Virus record (IMG/VR): IMGVR_UViG_3300026442_000101
DNA from: a virus
Taxonomy: Duplodnaviria > Caudoviricetes
Length of the DNA: 64,000 bases
Direction: 5' to 3' (one strand)
Shown: positions 1-19,128 of the stretch, one piece after another
How positions within the stretch are numbered: position 1 is the stretch's first letter
How the letters are laid out: each line of letters begins with the position of its first letter
Program-made: the position numbers and the translations under genes
Notes under the pieces: model-generated
Database searches by the model: none
What the model was told of the DNA's origin: nothing
Seen by the model: the letters and a program-made list of their open reading frames with translations, nothing else

Positions 1-118
1 TGTTGAGCGGTCGCAGTTAGGATTTCGGGTCGTACCTAAATTTTCCCCATTGCTGGGCGATGTCCTGATGTAGCGTTTTGGACGATTGCGACACTTTAGC
101 GATACCACGTTGGAAAAT

Positions 119-245
119 AGGTCTCCACCCGTGTTTTCGAGACACGGACCTCACTCATGTACCTGATCCACGCCGAACCCCGAAGGGATGGGCATGTTCG
201 GAATCGAACCGAAAGAGTGCGCTCTACCATCTGAGCTAGGCGGAG
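119..245 (-). ncRNA. Double-headed tRNA-like RNA A: outer tRNA body with a nested permuted tRNA remnant; no anticodon; A-CCU 3' end
   Basis: Minus strand reads CTCCGCC TA GCTC-AGATGGTA-GAGC G CACTC [T TTCGG-TTCGATT-CCGAA CATGCC CATCCC-TTCG-GGGTTC GGCGTG GATCAGGTACAT] GAGTG AGGTC CGTGT-CTCGAAA-ACACG GGTGGAG A CCT. Acceptor, D, anticodon and T stems all pair. Confidence 0.8.
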
Positions 246-252
246 ATAAAAC

Positions 253-978
253 TTACGCGCAGCGGTAGTTCGGGTTCTCGAGAACAACCTCGAGGTCGAA
301 GAACAGCTCGGTCTTGATGCTGGACGGCACGGTGATGGAAAGCAAGGCGCGCTCAGGATCTACCTTCAGGTAGATGTCTTCAGCACCAGGGATGCTGAGG
401 GTGTAGTTCTGAGTACGCTGACCTTCGATCTGCTTGATAGCAGAGAGGTCATGGGACAGCTTGATACCATCGGCCGTGCGGACGTTGTTGAAGCGGATAG
501 CGCCGACGCTGTCGGTCAGATCCAACACGCTGGGATCGCCGAAGCCGAACACGTTGAACTTACCATCGACCAACGGCAGGTTCTTGGCTTCGAGGCGACG
601 CTCGGTAGCGCGGCCAATGCGACGACGCAGGACAGTGGAGTACTTGTCCATGAACGCGCCTTGCTGCATCATCATGTCTACATCGAGATCGGAAAGACCT
701 TCAGGCTTGGCGCCCTGACCCACGTTGTAGAGGAACGAGCACAGACCTTTGTGACGCGCGGTCAGTTGCGCTTGCTCGATAATCATGCGCTGGACATGCG
801 CCGGGCGGCTGTCGATGTGACCGAGCGGCAAGTGATCTTTCAGGAACTGCTCTTCCGATTGCCAGGTTACGTTGCCGGCTTCGTCTTTGACGTTGTAGCC
901 AGGCTTACCATCTTCGCCGGATTGAGACGACCAGGCGAGGACAGTAACGTTCTTGTTCACCAGATAGTTCTGAGTCAT
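253..978 (-). CDS. Hypothetical protein; N-terminal half resembles the crAss001_48-like/DUF2829-associated phage domain
   Basis: 241-aa ORF with phage-like codon usage; GYNV...VTWQSEEQF and VQRMIIEQAQL...L.SFL motifs recalled from that family (not searched). Confidence 0.6.
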   Translation of the reverse strand: MTQNYLVNKNVTVLAWSSQSGEDGKPGYNVKDEAGNVTWQSEEQFLKDHLPLGHIDSRPAHVQRMIIEQAQLTARHKGLCSFLYNVGQGAKPEGLSDLDVDMMMQQGAFMDKYSTVLRRRIGRATERRLEAKNLPLVDGKFNVFGFGDPSVLDLTDSVGAIRFNNVRTADGIKLSHDLSAIKQIEGQRTQNYTLSIPGAEDIYLKVDPERALLSITVPSSIKTELFFDLEVVLENPNYRCA

Positions 979-1007
979 GAAAGATCTCTGCGGGTGGTTG
1001 GATGAAT

Positions 1008-1095
1008 AGGGCGTTCCTCGTGGATTTGAACCACGGACCTTCGGCGTGTCTTTTAGCTAAGGGGCCGACGCTCTAACCAGCTGAGCTAAGGAACG
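1008..1095 (-). ncRNA. tRNA-like RNA B with an 18-nt expanded anticodon loop and C-CCU end
   Basis: CGTTCCT TA GCTC-AGCTGGTTA-GAGC G TCGGC-[CCCTTAGCTAAAAGACAC]-GCCGA AGGTC CGTGG-TTCAAAT-CCACG AGGAACG C CCT. Confidence 0.85.
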
Positions 1096-1100
1096 AGAAT

Positions 1101-1213
1101 AGGGGCTTCCTCGAAGAATCGAACTTCGGACTTCCGCCAGGTATGGTGAGCCTGCCCCATTTAAGGGGCCAGGAGGCTCGAAGACGGCACTCTACCAACT
1201 GAGTTAAGGAAGC
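1101..1213 (-). ncRNA. tRNA-like RNA C with a 44-nt structured insert replacing the anticodon loop and C-CCU end
   Basis: GCTTCCT TA ACTC-AGTTGGTA-GAGT G CCGTC-[TTC GAGCCT CCTG GCCCC TTAAAT GGGGC AGGCTC ACCATACCT]-GGCGG AAGTC CGAAG-TTCGATT-CTTCG AGGAAGC C CCT. Confidence 0.85.
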
Positions 1214-1220
1214 ATGTAGC

Positions 1221-1496
1221 TTAAAGCAAACCTTCCGAGATCATGAACTGTTCGAGGTCATCAAAGAAACCATCGTACAGGATTTCGGTACCGGCAAAAC
1301 CTTTCCAGCGCCACCACTTAGGTTCTTTACCCATAGCGGTGATGCTTTCTTCGGTTTGCTTTCTGAAGAAATTACCGACCTTATCGAACGCAACGAGGTC
1401 GGTGGTGTAGAGATCCCCGTGGACGTGCAGCAGCCTGATTATCTTGGCTTCCAGTTCTGGACTAACCTCGAGTTCTTTCAGTTGCTTATTGCGCAT
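1221..1496 (-). CDS. Hypothetical protein (~91 aa)
   Basis: The ORF-track start (1553) lies inside tRNA-like RNA D; the first ATG outside it is at 1496 (MRNKQLKELE...). Confidence 0.6.
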   Translation of the reverse strand: MRNKQLKELEVSPELEAKIIRLLHVHGDLYTTDLVAFDKVGNFFRKQTEESITAMGKEPKWWRWKGFAGTEILYDGFFDDLEQFMISEGLL

Positions 1497-1513
1497 CACA
1501 AGTTTCTCTGAAT

Positions 1514-1664
1514 AGGGAGCACTGACTGGAATTGAACCAGTGACCTTCGTCAAGTTGGCCTTACGCTCTAACCAACTGAGCTAATCACCCATACGGGCGA
1601 TGCCGGACTCGAACCGGCGACCTTAAGGGAGGGACGACGCTCTACCAAACTGAGCTACAGTGCT
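1514..1664 (-). ncRNA. Double-headed tRNA-like RNA D: outer tRNA split at the anticodon around a complete circularly permuted (Val-like) tRNA body; C-CCU end
   Basis: AGCACTG TA GCTC-AGTTTGGTA-GAGC G TCGTC CCTC CCTTA AGGTC GCCGG-TTCGAGT-CCGGC ATCGCCC GTAT GGGTGAT TA GCTC-AGTTGGTTA-GAGC G TAAGG CCAACTT GACGA AGGTC ACTGG-TTCAATT-CCAGT CAGTGCT C CCT. Pairings cross as AGCACTG/CAGTGCT, TCGTC/GACGA, TAAGG/CCTTA and GGGTGAT/ATCGCCC. Confidence 0.9.
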
Positions 1665-1671
1665 ATTGAAT

Positions 1672-1821
1672 AGGTAACTCTAGCAGGGAATCGAACCCGC
1701 TGCCTTCCTCATGTTTGCGTCTACCAATTCCGCCATTGGCCGATAGTGCCGGCCAAGCAGGACTCGAACCTGCAATCCTTTTCAGGAAGGTGAGGACGCT
1801 CTACCAATGAGCTACAGAGTT
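1672..1821 (-). ncRNA. Double-headed tRNA-like RNA E: outer tRNA with a nested permuted Leu-type (class II) tRNA body; A-CCU end
   Basis: AACTCTG TA GCTC-ATTGGTA-GAGC G TCCTCA CCT TCCT-GAAA-AGGA TT GCAGG-TTCGAGT-CCTGC TTGGCCG GCACTAT CGGCCAA TG GCGGAATTGGTAGACGC AAACA TGAGGA AGGCA GCGGG-TTCGATT-CCCTGC TAGAGTT A CCT. TGGCGGAATTGGTAGACGC plus a variable-arm hairpin is tRNA-Leu-like. Confidence 0.88.
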
Positions 1822-1831
1822 AGAATAAGCG

Positions 1832-2115
1832 CCTGGGGAGGACATTCCCCAGGTCTTGCCACTAATTACCCTAGTGGCCAAGGTGCCTTCATATCGCTTC
1901 AGGCAGGTTTGCGCGGTACTAGCTAGTGTCTGACCATGCTAGAACAGTGCTCGGCATGTGCGGCGCTGGCGCTTCCCTGATAACTCAAAGCCAACAGACT
2001 GGCTCCTCGTCGTCGTAGGGTCTAATGTAACTACAAAGCCTTACGTGCAGCTATAGCGCCTCGGGTAGGGAGGGCACGGGGCTAGGATCTTAGGCTTGGC
2101 ATAGGAGTACCGAGC
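1832..2115 (-). ncRNA. Putative structured non-coding RNA (~285 nt) inside the tRNA cluster
   Basis: No ORF in the track. Long-range helix 2106-2115/1911-1920 (9 of 10 bp), hairpins at 1832-1853 and 1856-1881, and further internal stems. Strand is inferred from the flanking tRNAs. Confidence 0.5.
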
Positions 2116-2123
2116 TTCTGATT

Positions 2124-2201
2124 TGGCAGGGGTAATTGGATTCGAACCAATGATCGCGGCGTCAAAGGCCGCTGCTTTAGGCCAGGCTAAGCTATACCCC
2201 G
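2124..2201 (-). tRNA. tRNA-Gln (UUG)
   Basis: Cloverleaf with anticodon arm GCGGC-CT TTG AC-GCCGC, T arm ATTGG-TTCGAAT-CCAAT and encoded CCA; position 1:72 is C:U. Confidence 0.93.
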
Positions 2202-2209
2202 ATTGAAAA

Positions 2210-2285
2210 TGGCTCCACGACCTGGACTCGAACCAGGGACAGGCGAATTAACAGTCCGCTACTCTACCGACTGAGTTATCGTGGA
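2210..2285 (-). tRNA. tRNA-Asn (GUU)
   Basis: 76-nt cloverleaf TCCACGA...GCGGA-CT GTT AA-TTCGC...TCGTGGA G CCA. Confidence 0.96.
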
Positions 2286-2361
2286 ACAAAGGGTGACCCT
2301 CCAGCCGATCTACGGCTAGTTAAGCGCGCTGCGTAATACGCTGCCTGGCAAGGGTCGTAAA

Positions 2362-2445
2362 TGGTGGATGGGGAAGGATTCGAACCTTCGAAAAATTAAT
2401 GGCGGCTTTACAGGCCGCTCCCTTTGACCTCTCGTGAACTCATCC
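2362..2445 (-). tRNA. tRNA-Tyr (GUA)
   Basis: GCGGC-CT GTA AA-GCCGC arm, Tyr-type D arm, long variable region and encoded CCA; one A:C mismatch in the acceptor stem. Confidence 0.9.
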
Positions 2446-2454
2446 AGATGCAAG

Positions 2455-2530
2455 TGGTAGTACCGAGTGGGATGGAACCACCGACCTTATCCTTATCAGG
2501 GGTGCGCTCTACCAGCTGAGCTACGGCACT
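2455..2530 (-). tRNA. tRNA-Ile (GAU), degenerate
   Basis: 76 nt, loop CT GAT AA, encoded CCA; but the anticodon stem CACCC/GGATA has two C:A mismatches and the T loop is TTCCATC. Confidence 0.75.
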
Positions 2531-12317: not shown

Positions 12318-14381
12318 TTACGCGACTTTCGAATTGCCGTGCAGTTCGAACCACCGGTCAGTAGTTTCGGTGATGTGCTGATCGACCTTCGCACAGATGT
12401 CGGTGTGGTTAGGATCAACCACGAAACCGCCATCCATGAAGATCGGTTTCAGCAGACCAGACTTGACGTGGATCTCGGCGATCTTCATATCTTGCTCTTG
12501 GTTGAGCACGATACCTTCATCGCTGTCGATCAGCGCCAGCAGGCCTTTGGCCGACTTCTTCAGACCGTCACCGGTGGCTGGGTCTTTGTACAGCTCGACC
12601 ATCTCACCATTGACCATGGTCGCGGTAGCCTTAACGGCAATGCCGAAGGTATCGCGAGTCAGGTAGTTGTAGGTGTAGGAGCCGACGCCGAACACGACGT
12701 TGCACGATGCGAAACCTTTGATCGCCAGACGACGGCAGATTTCTTCAGCGCGGTGTACGGTGATGGAATCGCCGTAGATCAGGCCGATGCGTTCGTGCAG
12801 AACTTTGTAGCCGCGTTCGGTTTCGGTACCGCCGAAGGTTTCCCACAGCAGCTCGATGGCACCCTTCTCTTGCGCCGACAGCTCGACCTGTTCGATCTTG
12901 TAGCCGTTGCGGTAAGTGCCCTTACCCATGACCATGACTTCGACACCGCGCAGCTCGAGCAGGTCATGCAGCTCACGATACGCTTTGAAGCGGACCGGGT
13001 CGGTGCAATCGGCGCTGATCGGGAACGGGTAGTCGAACAGGGCGGCGGAGCCCATCACGTCGGTCATCAGTTCGTCGTAGTAGCTGTGATCAACCGCAGG
13101 CAGATCGGCCTTGACCTGACTGATGGTGCGGGAGATCGCTTTACCGGCGATACTGGTGGCTTTGTGAATCTTGCCTTCCGGATCTTTGAAGTAGACGAAC
13201 TCCGGCTTGTAGTTCACCATCTGAGCTTCGGCAGCAAGCTGGTCCAGGATTTCCACGCCGCAGATGATTTCTACAGGATCGCCCGAGTCAGGACGGATGA
13301 CCAGCTTGGCCATGCCGTTCTCGTCAGGCAGACGAGCCAGGATCTCTTCCTTCAGCGAAGGCAGGACCGAGGTCAGTACGCCAAAGAAGTCGAAGCTGTC
13401 GCACACCAGGCCCAGCATGCCGGTCTTGAACTTGACGGTCAACATTTCCTTGATGAAGCCACGCTCTGCTTCCAGGCGCATGCCTTTCAGTTCAGAGAGC
13501 AGCTCTTCTTCGGTAGCGCCTTCGGCTCGACGAGCCTTGACCATCTGACGCAGCCGACTCAGGATGTTCGCGGTTGCCACCGAGTGCTCAGTCGCAGGAA
13601 TGGTACCTGCGATCATCACCTTCTCGGCATCGCCGTTGTACATCTGCTCGATGTAGTCGATGGCCGGCATGGTATCACTGCCGGTGAACACGCGCAGGTG
13701 AGCCGCGCCGCAACGAGCGCCATCTTCCATACCCGACATGCCACGGTACGAGAAGTCGTGAGCCTGGAACTTGACGAAGTCGGTAGGCACGCCGGTGATC
13801 TTGGCCCACTTGGTCAGGACGCGACGGTACTCGAACGCAATGGTGCCGACGGTAACCTGTTTCCAGGTCATGTTCGACATGATGGTTTCGAGGAACTCGG
13901 CCAGCCAGAAGAACTCGGAGCCTTCATCGATGACATTACCGTTGCTGTCGTAGATGACGTACATAGGCACGCCAATCGGCAGACGGGTACCTTCTTCCAC
14001 GCCCAGGATACGCAGCGGCAGGTGACCGATATCGTGCAGGTTGGCAAGGGACTTGGCCGATACCTTGTCTTTGCCGATGTAGGTGTCGCAGCGGCGCTTG
14101 AACTTGTAGAGCACGTCGGACTTCGGCTTGCTGAAGAAGCTCTCTTCCCACATGCTGACGATTTCATGCAGCGCGGCTACGTGACCGGTGACCAGGATCT
14201 TACGGTCCCACATCGAACTACAACTCGGCGATCGAGCGAAGATCTTGTCGCTACGCGCGGTGCTGTTGGCGTAGAGGAACGACGAACCGTCGGGATACAT
14301 CGGACCATGGCCTTGTTTGTAGCCATCGGTACCGGTAGGGCCGAACATCTTGAAAGCTTTGAACAGTTTCTTGAGAGACAT
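12318..14381 (-). CDS. nadV: Nicotinamide phosphoribosyltransferase-like protein (NAMPT; Namat-like in NARP1)
   Basis: TDGYKQGH, HDFSYRG, GSDT, PATEHSV, DSFDFF, VIRPDSGDP, GLIYGDSIT, FGVGSY, TRDTFG.A.K and KKSAKG motifs; two insertions give 687 aa. Confidence 0.93.
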   Translation of the reverse strand: MSLKKLFKAFKMFGPTGTDGYKQGHGPMYPDGSSFLYANSTARSDKIFARSPSCSSMWDRKILVTGHVAALHEIVSMWEESFFSKPKSDVLYKFKRRCDTYIGKDKVSAKSLANLHDIGHLPLRILGVEEGTRLPIGVPMYVIYDSNGNVIDEGSEFFWLAEFLETIMSNMTWKQVTVGTIAFEYRRVLTKWAKITGVPTDFVKFQAHDFSYRGMSGMEDGARCGAAHLRVFTGSDTMPAIDYIEQMYNGDAEKVMIAGTIPATEHSVATANILSRLRQMVKARRAEGATEEELLSELKGMRLEAERGFIKEMLTVKFKTGMLGLVCDSFDFFGVLTSVLPSLKEEILARLPDENGMAKLVIRPDSGDPVEIICGVEILDQLAAEAQMVNYKPEFVYFKDPEGKIHKATSIAGKAISRTISQVKADLPAVDHSYYDELMTDVMGSAALFDYPFPISADCTDPVRFKAYRELHDLLELRGVEVMVMGKGTYRNGYKIEQVELSAQEKGAIELLWETFGGTETERGYKVLHERIGLIYGDSITVHRAEEICRRLAIKGFASCNVVFGVGSYTYNYLTRDTFGIAVKATATMVNGEMVELYKDPATGDGLKKSAKGLLALIDSDEGIVLNQEQDMKIAEIHVKSGLLKPIFMDGGFVVDPNHTDICAKVDQHITETTDRWFELHGNSKVA

Positions 14382-14408
14382 GTTACGTCCTTGCTTGCGG
14401 GTGGGTGT

Positions 14409-15266
14409 TTAAACTTCGAGCCAGTGGTAGCCTTCGCGCACTTCGCCGTCAGGGCAGAGCGGGCCACGTCCTTTACCGTGGAACGAGTTGGTGCTGTAGA
14501 TCGCATCGAAATACTTCGGCATTTCGTCGTAGCCGTGGCTGAAGATGCCGTGGGTTACGAACAGCGACATGTACTTAGCGCCTTTCTCACGCAGCTTCTT
14601 GGAAAGCTCCATGAAGGTACGGCCGCCATCACAGATGTCGTCGAAGATGATGACATTCTTGCCATCAACATCACCGTAGATCTCGGTGTGGGAGATCTTG
14701 CCGGTAGCTGGGTCACGGTGCTTACTGGCCACGATGACTTCAGACGCCTTGAGCTCTTTGGCGTACTGGTAGGTCTTCTTGAGCGCACCGGCATCAGGAG
14801 CGATCAACACCAGACCTTCGGGCAGGTGGAGCTTACCGATGTACTCCAGGGCGCTGACGTTGACACAGTTGTTGATACCGGTCATGGCGCCTTCGGAGTG
14901 AGCGTCCACGATGGTCACGGTTTCCGCATTGATCGAATTGATCATCTGCCCAACCACTGCCAGCGACAGAGCCTCGCCTTCGTTGCAGACGCGGTCCTGA
15001 CGAGCGTACGGCAGGTACGGGATGAACAGACGTACTGCACAGCCCGGCCAGCGGCGACGCACAGCGTCAGCGGTGAGCATGAGACCGATCAGCAGGTCGG
15101 AGCTGCTGAGGTGGGCTACGATGGTCACGTCAGGACGGATCATCGGTGCATCGCATGGATCGAGTTTGACATCGATCTCACCGCCCGGGAACTTGCCAAT
15201 CTTGACAGCGATGTCGCGGGACATTACGCCAGTGGCGAAGTTCATGGTGGCAATTACTTTGATCAT
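14409..15266 (-). CDS. prs: Ribose-phosphate pyrophosphokinase-like protein (Adps-like in NARP1)
   Basis: KFPGGE, IPYLPYARQDR, VDAHS, APDAGALK and IFDDICDGGRT motifs. Confidence 0.93.
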   Translation of the reverse strand: MIKVIATMNFATGVMSRDIAVKIGKFPGGEIDVKLDPCDAPMIRPDVTIVAHLSSSDLLIGLMLTADAVRRRWPGCAVRLFIPYLPYARQDRVCNEGEALSLAVVGQMINSINAETVTIVDAHSEGAMTGINNCVNVSALEYIGKLHLPEGLVLIAPDAGALKKTYQYAKELKASEVIVASKHRDPATGKISHTEIYGDVDGKNVIIFDDICDGGRTFMELSKKLREKGAKYMSLFVTHGIFSHGYDEMPKYFDAIYSTNSFHGKGRGPLCPDGEVREGYHWLEV

Positions 15267-18399: not shown

Positions 18400-19128
18400 T
18401 CAACCTACCACCGGCGCAAGGTCTGCGCTGATGATGAACTGCGACCAGTTTTCGTAAACGTCGATGGTATCATCCAGCTCAAAGCCGGTTTGCCATTTGA
18501 CGTCTTCGATTGCATCTTCTTCGCCCGAAGTGACTTCAAGTACTGGCTGTACTTCAACATCGAAGTACACACCGAGGTGAGTCTTGCCGACGTCGTCCGT
18601 GGTGTCATAGATGAAACCTCGCGCTTCCACGCAGAAGTATTCAGGATCATCGGCAATGGTTACGAACTTGCCAAGACCTGGGTGGTAGAACCGCAGCTCT
18701 TCGTCTACCTCACGGATGAACGAAGCGCGCAGCGTCTGGTAGGCGTAGATCACGCCTTTCGGGCTACGGACGTAGTCGATGGAATCGACATGACCTGCAA
18801 ACCCTACCGAACGCTTGCCGGACAGACGCACTTCACCGTTGTTCTGGTCAGGGCGCTTGTACGACAGGGTGGACTTCTTATTACCTTCACCTGGCCACTT
18901 CGACACGGTGCCGTAGGGGATGAAGTGCAGCTCCGTACGAGACGCTTCCATCCGCTTACGGGTACGCGAGACGATGTCCCAGCGTGCGTCGTGGCAGAAC
19001 TTCTCGACGTCTTGCTTGATCACGCCCTGGCGCGGAGTGTTCAGCAGGACGATTGCCTGCATGATCTCCAGGCCGAAGATGCTCTCAAGCTGCTTCTCGT
19101 ACTTGTATTCTTCGTTGATCGGCGACAT
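18400..19128 (-). CDS. NUDIX-family phosphoesterase (YmaB-like)
   Basis: FIPY, YKR....EVRLSGKRSVGFAGHVD, REVDEEL, GFIYD...VGKTHLG motifs. Confidence 0.8.
   Translation of the reverse strand: MSPINEEYKYEKQLESIFGLEIMQAIVLLNTPRQGVIKQDVEKFCHDARWDIVSRTRKRMEASRTELHFIPYGTVSKWPGEGNKKSTLSYKRPDQNNGEVRLSGKRSVGFAGHVDSIDYVRSPKGVIYAYQTLRASFIREVDEELRFYHPGLGKFVTIADDPEYFCVEARGFIYDTTDDVGKTHLGVYFDVEVQPVLEVTSGEEDAIEDVKWQTGFELDDTIDVYENWSQFIISADLAPVVG

Follow-up and report, generated by a model that had tools for sequence, protein, structure and literature searches.

A tRNA-like gene with a closed arm in place of the anticodon loop in a soil giant phage, a candidate non-decoding tRNA mimic

The tRNA array of an uncultured phiKZ-like jumbo phage contains a 113-nt gene, here called type c, in which a tRNA body is kept and the anticodon loop is replaced by a closed arm. 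The source is a soil giant phage with a genome of roughly 240 kb, and among its genes are those of a tail tube protein and of several phiKZ internal head proteins, besides a nucleotide-metabolism block; the window referred to throughout is the whole stretch of its DNA that was analysed, 64 kb in length. Type c keeps the complete top half of a tRNA, i.e., the 12-bp acceptor/T helix, the D/T elbow and C74 together with C75, and the arm that stands in for the anticodon loop is built from a junction of 3 x 9 nt, a helix of 6 bp and, beyond a bulge, a small hairpin whose loop is UUAA(A/G)U. Its RNA almost certainly cannot read codons. The explanation that we prefer, and hold to be somewhat probable, is that type c encodes a non-decoding tRNA mimic.

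The tRNA body and its closed arm

Read from 1213 to 1101, the element runs GCUUCCU-UA-ACUC-AGUUGGUA-GAGU-G-CCGUC-(44 nt)-GGCGG-AAGUC-CGAAG-UUCGAUU-CUUCG-AGGAAGC-C-CC-U. The 44 nt that separate the two halves of the anticodon stem, against a 7-nt loop in an ordinary tRNA, consist of UUC, GAGCCU, CCUG, GCCCC-UUAAAU-GGGGC, AGGCUC and ACCAUACCU, in this order (Table 1). The first-pass annotation, made from the letters of the window, had described a tRNA body with a 44-nt hairpin replacing the anticodon loop; this description is borne out by the sequence, by the Rfam tRNA model, by the fold and by covariation, and the helices that it named (CCGTC/GGCGG, GAGCCT/AGGCTC and GCCCC-TTAAAT-GGGGC) are present exactly as given there. 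In a 1.8-kb search with permissive filters, type c matched the Rfam tRNA model RF00005 with 48 bits (E 1e-8) over model positions 1-71, and the alignment places the insertion in the anticodon loop. The gene was called neither by ARAGORN nor by a default filtered Rfam run. Its minimum-free-energy fold is the cloverleaf with the long arm (-42.8 kcal/mol, z -2.7), and 3 of 200 shuffled sequences folded equally well.

The nucleotides of the elbow are complete (U8, A14, G15 with C48, G18G19, A21, G46, U54U55C56 and A58). When type c is compared with a canonical tRNA, the cloverleaf and the conserved tertiary nucleotides (U8, A14, G18G19, G26, U54U55C56, A58) are in place, but the combination of a 7-nt loop, U33 and a free anticodon is missing, positions 35-40 being paired. 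The 3' end is C73-CC-U, and an encoded CCA is absent, unlike in the four decoding tRNAs of the array, which end in N73-CCA.

Several other identities were considered for the element or its arm and discarded. The distal hairpin was found once in the 64-kb window, so that it does not represent a mobile palindromic insert. A K-turn at the 3-nt junction was dismissed on inspection, as the G-A following the bulge takes part in Watson-Crick pairing and GA is missing from the opposite strand. A loop-loop dimer of type c could draw only on the 4-nt palindrome UUAA, made entirely of A-U pairs, which is too weak. The paired CNG motif of the P2 OLD nuclease is matched by the anticodon stem of the window (CCG/CGG), but relatives show CCA/UGG. 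An antisense target was rejected too, since sequences complementary to the 3' junction strand or the loop do not exist in the window or the related loci, except on the opposite strand of the element itself. Among larger RNA classes, a group I intron is excluded by size (an excess of 37 nt compared with about 200 nt or more and a P1-P9 core), and a tmRNA by U3-A70 in the place of G3-U70, by the length of 113 nt and by the lack of an ARAGORN tmRNA call.

Table 1. Parts of the type c gene, members of its array, and sister genes in related contigs. Positions refer to the window unless a contig is named, and tRNA numbering is used for single nucleotides.
Feature	Position	Strand	Description
Type c, whole tRNA-like gene	1101..1213	(-)	113 nt; G1=1213, C73=1104, CC=1103-1102, U=1101
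Acceptor stem, 7 bp, 5' strand GCUUCCU	1207..1213	(-)	Partner AGGAAGC 1111..1105; 7/7 pairs kept in 4 homologues
U8 and A9			Between acceptor stem and D arm
D arm ACUC-AGUUGGUA-GAGU	1189..1204	(-)	A14, G15, G18, G19, A21 present; followed by G26
Anticodon stem, 5 bp, 5' strand CCGUC	1183..1187	(-)	Partner GGCGG 1138..1134
5' junction strand UUC	1180..1182	(-)	Positions 32-34; CCC in relatives (alignment)
Extension helix, 5' strand GAGCCU	1174..1179	(-)	Partner AGGCUC 1153..1148; 6/6 pairs kept
5'-side bulge CCUG	1170..1173	(-)	3-6 nt in relatives
Distal hairpin GCCCC-UUAAAU-GGGGC	1154..1169	(-)	Loop UUAA(A/G)U and CCC/GGG core invariant
3' junction strand ACCAUACCU, 9 nt	1139..1147	(-)	Conserved as ACCA(U/G/-)ACCU
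Variable loop AAGUC, 5 nt	1133..1129	(-)	Precedes T arm
T arm CGAAG-UUCGAUU-CUUCG	1112..1128	(-)	Invariant in all homologues; canonical T loop U54 U55 C56 R57 A58
Four decoding tRNAs	2124..2530	(-)	Ile-GAU, Tyr-GUA, Asn-GUU, Gln-UUG; all encode CCA
ORF-free stretch, ~285 nt	1830-2120	(-)	Between tRNA-Gln and first double-headed RNA
Double-headed tRNA-in-tRNA 1	1673..1821	(-)	Sister gene; matched by covariance model R1
Double-headed tRNA-in-tRNA 2	1512..1667	(-)	Sister gene; matched by R1
Orphan ORF, 91 aa	1221..1496	(-)	Between second double-headed RNA and type c
Type d, sister gene	1008..1095	(-)	tRNA body, 18-nt loop CCCUUAGCUAAAAGACAC, CCU end; Rfam tRNA 54.7 bits
Sequestin-like gene, 241 aa	253..978	(-)	PF21825 (Sequestin / crAss001_48), Pfam E 1.9e-12
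Sister gene, reduced two-headed form	119..245	(-)	R1 56.3 bits; downstream of Sequestin-like gene
Type b, sister genes	L001:3283-3422; L003:50-189; L008:575-714; L009:614-765		tRNA body with branched 64-77-nt insert
Type d homologues	L001:3882-3968; L003:638-724; L009:1093-1183		Loop 18-21 nt, window included

Homologues, covariation and the question of decoding

Homologues were searched with the Sequestin-like protein (gene 978..253) as anchor, the identity of which amounts to 76% in L001 (the same contig as L004) and L002, 67-68% in L003, 61% in L008 and 51% in L009. A type c homologue lies at the same place in L001, L002, L003 and L008, with an insert of 41-46 nt. Homologues with normal 7-nt loops, which the first-pass annotation had named as the mark of a private insertion mutation, do not appear among those found; all of them keep the insert, and type c is therefore not a private insertion. 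The DNA pattern of the arm matched only the same three viral contigs, the GenBank phages gave no match to the arm, and a metagenome scan returned no homologue beyond the contig already known. The covariance model built from the four type c homologues (R1) scores type c at 147 bits; in phiKZ, PhiPA3, OBP and EL it found normal-length tRNAs only, and in 201phi2-1 and Xoo-sp14 nothing.

In the alignment, which holds four distinct sequences only, three of them close to one another, standard pairs fill 99.2% of the pair cells of the proposed structure, and 7 of its 32 pairs are changed on both sides (acceptor stem 2, D stem 1, anticodon stem 1, extension helix 2, distal helix 1), so that three of the two-sided changes sit in the arm. 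As a control, the 3' partners were slid by 1-3 columns, upon which 43-52% of the cells were paired and no compensatory change was left. The acceptor stem shows G1-C72 replaced by A-U and C6-G67 by U-A, the D stem A10-U25 replaced by G-C in relatives, and the extension helix a G-C turned into A-U and a U-A turned into C-G; the changes listed for the anticodon stem are G29-C41 to A-U and U30-G40 to C-G, and at pair 51/64 of the distal helix, one sequence has C-G and another has U-A. As the stems drift, the single-stranded motifs of the arm, i.e., the UUAA(A/G)U loop and the ACCA(U/G/-)ACCU strand, stay invariant. The RF00005 match, the fold, and the covariation measured against the slid control together indicate that the feature is real and beyond chance. 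On the other hand, the arm of the relatives, taken alone, gains no stability over shuffled sequence (z about 0) and is irregularly paired in its distal part, which counts against the mimic.

Type c is under strong purifying selection. Between phages, the RNA is 81-99% identical, compared with 70-80% for the DNA of the adjacent gene; the RNA and the adjacent coding DNA show 99 and 73% identity between L001 and L003, 94 and 72% between L001 and L008, and 83 and 70% between the window and L008, respectively. A decaying tRNA pseudogene or a functionless private insertion would agree with the lack of an ARAGORN call and with the destroyed anticodon loop, but this explanation deserves hardly any credence, given an insert found in all homologues with compensatory changes and an element that is better conserved than the coding DNA at its flanks.

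Whether the RNA could be made to decode depends on the nucleotides next to the anticodon stem. Positions 32-34 read UUC in the window and CCC in three relatives; with C at position 33 in three of the four homologues, there is no canonical anticodon loop to be conserved. Positions 34-36 are CGA, followed by a purine, in all four sequences. This constancy is also predicted for a spliced tRNA, and to that extent it counts against the mimic; it is explained equally well by pairing, since G35 and A36 form the first two pairs of the extension helix. Removal of the 37 nt after position 37 would give a 7-nt loop, UUCGAGU in the window and CCCGAAU or CCCGAGU in relatives. An intron-bearing tRNA was thus weighed, in which some endonuclease and ligase of the phage or the host would take out these 37 nt to expose the anticodon CGA; in its favour are the correct spacing from the stem of C34-G35-A36 and purine 37 in the four homologues, and the "enigmatic introns" of Lak megaphage tRNA genes (PMC6784885). 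We consider it quite improbable. Position 33 is a cytosine in three of the four, and the body is of class I, its C73 and its variable loop of 5 nt setting it apart from bacterial tRNA-Ser; inserts of 37-41 nt are far below group I size, and type c matched no intron or ribozyme family of Rfam at E up to 10; the search for homologues gave none that lacks the insert. Moreover, in the sister gene type d, the would-be anticodon varies (CUU vs. CGU) amid a remainder that is ~96% conserved, which speaks against decoding for the whole RNA family. The more specific proposal that the insert belongs to an intron type new to bacteria and their viruses, the product being a class I tRNA with anticodon CGA on a non-serine body, is very improbable; if it were true, a giant phage would re-read UCG codons during infection.

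The enzymology of splicing was also followed up. The first-pass annotation had seen no obvious bulge-helix-bulge, had suggested either a long-armed tRNA mimic or a substrate of a phage RNA cut-and-ligate system, and had proposed a search for RtcB, Rnl/Pnkp or EndA-like genes. A script scan agrees on the first point, with no strict motif (3-nt/4-bp/3-nt) in the type c of the window; in relatives, the scan returned only non-homologous hits that conflict with the cloverleaf. By Pfam, no RtcB, Rnl, Pnkp, EndA or Ro60 domain occurs among the ~50 ORFs of the 64-kb window. With neither a conserved bulge-helix-bulge, nor repair domains in those ORFs, nor a contig that skips the insert, the cut-and-ligate substrate finds no support, whereas the long-armed mimic is favoured by the conserved and covarying arm, by the lack of conservation of U33 and by the sister RNAs. 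Regarding transcripts, 24 soil metatranscriptome runs contain the locus and four were compared with the window. Contigs of up to 234 kb from the four RNA libraries are colinear with 1..2500 at nearly flat depth; they reveal neither ends, expression level nor rare spliced forms, and may include DNA carry-over. No contig joint skipping the insert was found in these four soil RNA libraries, assembled contigs being prone to drop rare forms. One contig of run X23 starts at 1013 behind Illumina adapter letters, near the 3' end of type d, and the depth at 1013 steps from about 4080 to about 5540; this start may be the fragment end of an abundant small RNA, although it is a weak hint.

Sister RNAs, array context and possible roles

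In the direction of transcription, on the (-) strand, the array comprises the four tRNAs, the ORF-free stretch, two double-headed genes, the 91-aa ORF, type c and type d, and it continues past type d with the Sequestin-domain gene and then the tRNA-like gene 245..119. Type c begins 7 nt past the stop codon of ORF 1496..1221, its CCU is separated from type d by 5 nt, and no promoter-like or terminator-like sites of its own were found at its location in the array. At its end, the ORF-free stretch has a GC-rich hairpin (1853..1832), and the sequence after this hairpin, GCUUAUUC, is similar to the CCUAUUC trailer found in the mimics; in relatives, the corresponding position is taken by a tRNA-His and by a tRNA body whose branched insert measures 64 nt. 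The 91-aa ORF has no Pfam or PHROG family and no relative in Atlas, PDB or viral contigs. It is missing in the relatives, whose two RNA genes adjoin, and appears to have been inserted into the RNA array recently.

R1 recovers every anticodon-less tRNA-like gene in the window and the related contigs. At least five such genes, all CCU-ended, lie in the array of the window; anticodon-less genes share a common chassis and a tail N73-CC-U(A/U)U, mostly CCU followed by AUU. The rule that anticodon-less genes end in CCU and decoding tRNAs in CCA holds in all five phages (the window, L001, L003, L008 and L009). In three sister genes of the window, the insert is itself a second tRNA top half. Type b, absent from the window, has the same D arm as type c (UAACUCAGYUGGUAGAGU), an anticodon stem CCGCC/GGCGG vs. 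CCGUC/GGCGG, and a 3' junction strand CACCAACGU vs. the similar CACCA-N-ACCU of type c. A common chassis with different inserts points to one design, in which a constant tRNA top half is combined with an exchangeable closed structure replacing the anticodon loop. The loop of type d always includes an AGCU-centred palindrome (UUAGCUAA in the window, UAGCUA in L003, UUUUAGCUAAAA in L009, and AGCU plus UUAA in L001), which could form a mini-hairpin or a loop-loop dimer.

Such a design can also be understood as a natural tRNA scaffold, in which the tRNA body would serve as a chassis for processing by RNase P and at the 3' end and for nuclease resistance, and the displayed arm would be the effector, e.g., a site at which a protein of the phage or the host binds, formed by the UUAA(A/G)U loop, the bulge and the CACCA-N-ACCU strand. 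The different cargo that type b carries on the same chassis, the single-stranded arm motifs that stay constant on drifting stems, and the function of the engineered equivalent in E. coli all suit this possibility. We nonetheless rate it as unlikely. Three of the sister genes carry a tRNA top half as their cargo, an indication that tRNA mimicry is the shared theme; furthermore, the window holds no complementary target for the loop or the junction, and the arm, a short one, has only weak structure in relatives.

For the non-decoding mimic, a course of events can be outlined. The 12-bp acceptor/T helix, the elbow and C74C75 are the determinants for bacterial RNase P, 3' exonucleases and the CCA-adding enzyme; as these are present, the type c RNA should be released from the array as the adjacent tRNAs are, and should be stable. 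It would be transcribed together with the phage tRNA array, excised at G1 by the RNase P of the host and trimmed at the 3' end to N73-CC, where the CCA-adding enzyme would perhaps add A. The determinants of a synthetase that ignores the anticodon (G3-U70, a long variable arm, A73 or G-1) are absent from type c, and for this reason its RNA is expected to stay uncharged. It would fold as an L-shape with an over-long, closed lower limb, which would allow no codon pairing and offer no anticodon loop to nucleases. As its likeliest role, though one to which we give a chance well below even, it might then occupy or divert a protein that recognises the top half of tRNAs; candidate partners are a tRNA-directed defence effector of the host or a tRNA-processing enzyme, and the recognition would be made more specific by the conserved junction strand and the loop. 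From these sequence features we infer a discrete processed RNA with a partner.

Conflict over tRNAs between phages and defence nucleases is well documented (PMC12445682), and the precedents of T5 RNA1, M. smegmatis YrlA and the engineered tRNA scaffolds count for the mimic. On the other side, a decoy without an anticodon loop would miss those nucleases that recognise mainly that loop. Weak contextual support for the mimic comes from the gene of the anti-defence family PF21825 directly downstream. It starts ~30 nt after type d, and the same spacing after tRNA-like genes is seen in all close relatives; the description of the family is that of a phage anti-Thoeris sponge for the immune signal 3'cADPR. 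The PF21825 domain covers residues 59-122 of the 241-aa protein, the usual sponges being shorter (about 60-100 aa). Elsewhere in the window, at 12318-15266 and 18400-19128 (-), an NAD-salvage-like block is made up of a 687-aa protein of the NAPRTase/Nampt family, a PRPP-synthetase-like protein and a weak match to Nudix; next to it are a thymidylate synthase (606 aa) and a thymidylate kinase (462 aa), both of a long form. The block may be an NAD-replenishing counter-defence module.

The positions of the genes also allow a humbler role, that of processing punctuation, in which the fold would serve only the cuts by RNase P and RNase Z/E that free two mRNAs, one from the small ORF before the element and one from the Sequestin-like gene after it. 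The 7-nt distance from the stop of ORF 1496..1221, the placement of types c and d directly before gene 978..253, another tRNA-like element after that gene, and the failure to find a promoter or terminator of type c's own are all as this role would have them. It is improbable, as a plain tRNA would do equally well, as it leaves the conserved arm, the covariation, the invariant loop and the CCU rule unexplained, and as relatives keep type c although the upstream ORF is absent.

Relation to known tRNA-like systems

Intron-containing pre-tRNAs of archaea and eukaryotes share with type c an extra helix that prolongs the anticodon stem, and a would-be anticodon that pairs with the insert. They have the 3-nt/4-bp/3-nt motif, whereas the central helix of type c is of 6 bp and its proximal loop is of 3 x 9 nt; besides, the host in its case is a bacterium, and neither an endonuclease nor a ligase gene is seen in the window. 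The nearest published metagenomic parallel is that of the Lak "enigmatic introns", conserved insertions in the anticodon region of megaphage tRNA genes for which no bacterial removal mechanism is known (Devoto et al. 2019, PMC6784885). One of these inserts is itself tRNA-like, as in the double-headed sister genes of the window (PMC6784885). The Lak genes were assigned defined anticodons when called as tRNAs, and they have alleles without the intron; for type c no such allele was found among its homologues, and U33 is not conserved.

YrlA of M. smegmatis is a tRNA-like RNA that RNase P cleaves and to which CA is added (Chen et al. 2014, PMC4201824). Like type c, YrlA (RF02553) is a non-decoding RNA with a tRNA-like domain, but it is circularly permuted, with a loop-closed acceptor and its open ends in the Ro60-binding helix that bears GNCGAAN0-1G, and is encoded beside rsr (PMC4201824); type c has open acceptor ends and an arm without GNCGAAN0-1G. 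No TROVE domain was found by Pfam among the ~50 ORFs of the window, and the lone match of the YrlA model that touches type c (25 bits, 1136..1066) runs across the junction of two tandem genes. Identity with YrlA or a Y RNA was consequently rejected, this match being a junction artefact.

In architecture, the engineered tRNA scaffold of Ponchon and Dardel is identical to type c, with the acceptor, T and D arms kept and the anticodon stem-loop used as the insertion site for a hairpin RNA (PMC3753655). These scaffolds are recognised by cellular tRNA enzymes, processed and stable in E. coli (PMC3753655). Being man-made, they show that the design works, and not which role the natural RNA plays.

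The closest natural analogue of type c is RNA1 of phage T5 (rna1, NC_005859 30501-30644; L022:702-845 (-)), annotated as "tRNA-like stable RNA with unknown functions". As in type c, it is encoded in a phage tRNA cluster, it has an acceptor stem, a D arm, an anticodon stem and a T arm, and no CCA is encoded; its anticodon loop is likewise replaced, the Rfam tRNA model placing a 47-nt insertion there and the fold showing an extended arm. Unlike type c, it carries a long variable arm of the Leu type and reaches only 24 bits against the tRNA model. The two RNAs have no sequence similarity (with filters off, R1 gave no match at E up to 1), and the likeness is therefore one of design only. RNA1 stands alone beside two unrelated stable RNAs, whereas type c belongs to a family of five to seven CCU-ended mimics. 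As analogues, rnaC and rnaD of T4 were discarded, both being weaker than T5 RNA1: rnaC combines a T arm with an acceptor-like stem and is marginally tRNA-like (17.5 bits with the tRNA-Sec model, E 0.76), and rnaD is not tRNA-like.

Phage tRNA clusters are usually regarded as supplements for codon usage, or as a supply of tRNAs that makes good those cleaved by the defences of the host. Type c, its sisters and T5 RNA1 suggest a second cargo in these clusters, namely RNAs that present to tRNA-binding enzymes all the features of a tRNA other than the anticodon. Should they act as decoys or scaffolds in the conflict over tRNAs, they would represent an RNA-based counter-defence, and a natural version of the tRNA-scaffold trick of biotechnology. 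On its own, type c adds a well-supported example, with covariation and a chassis-plus-insert logic, to the known, poorly understood class of phage tRNA look-alikes to which T5 RNA1 also belongs, and for this mimic class T5 RNA1 offers a cultured model.
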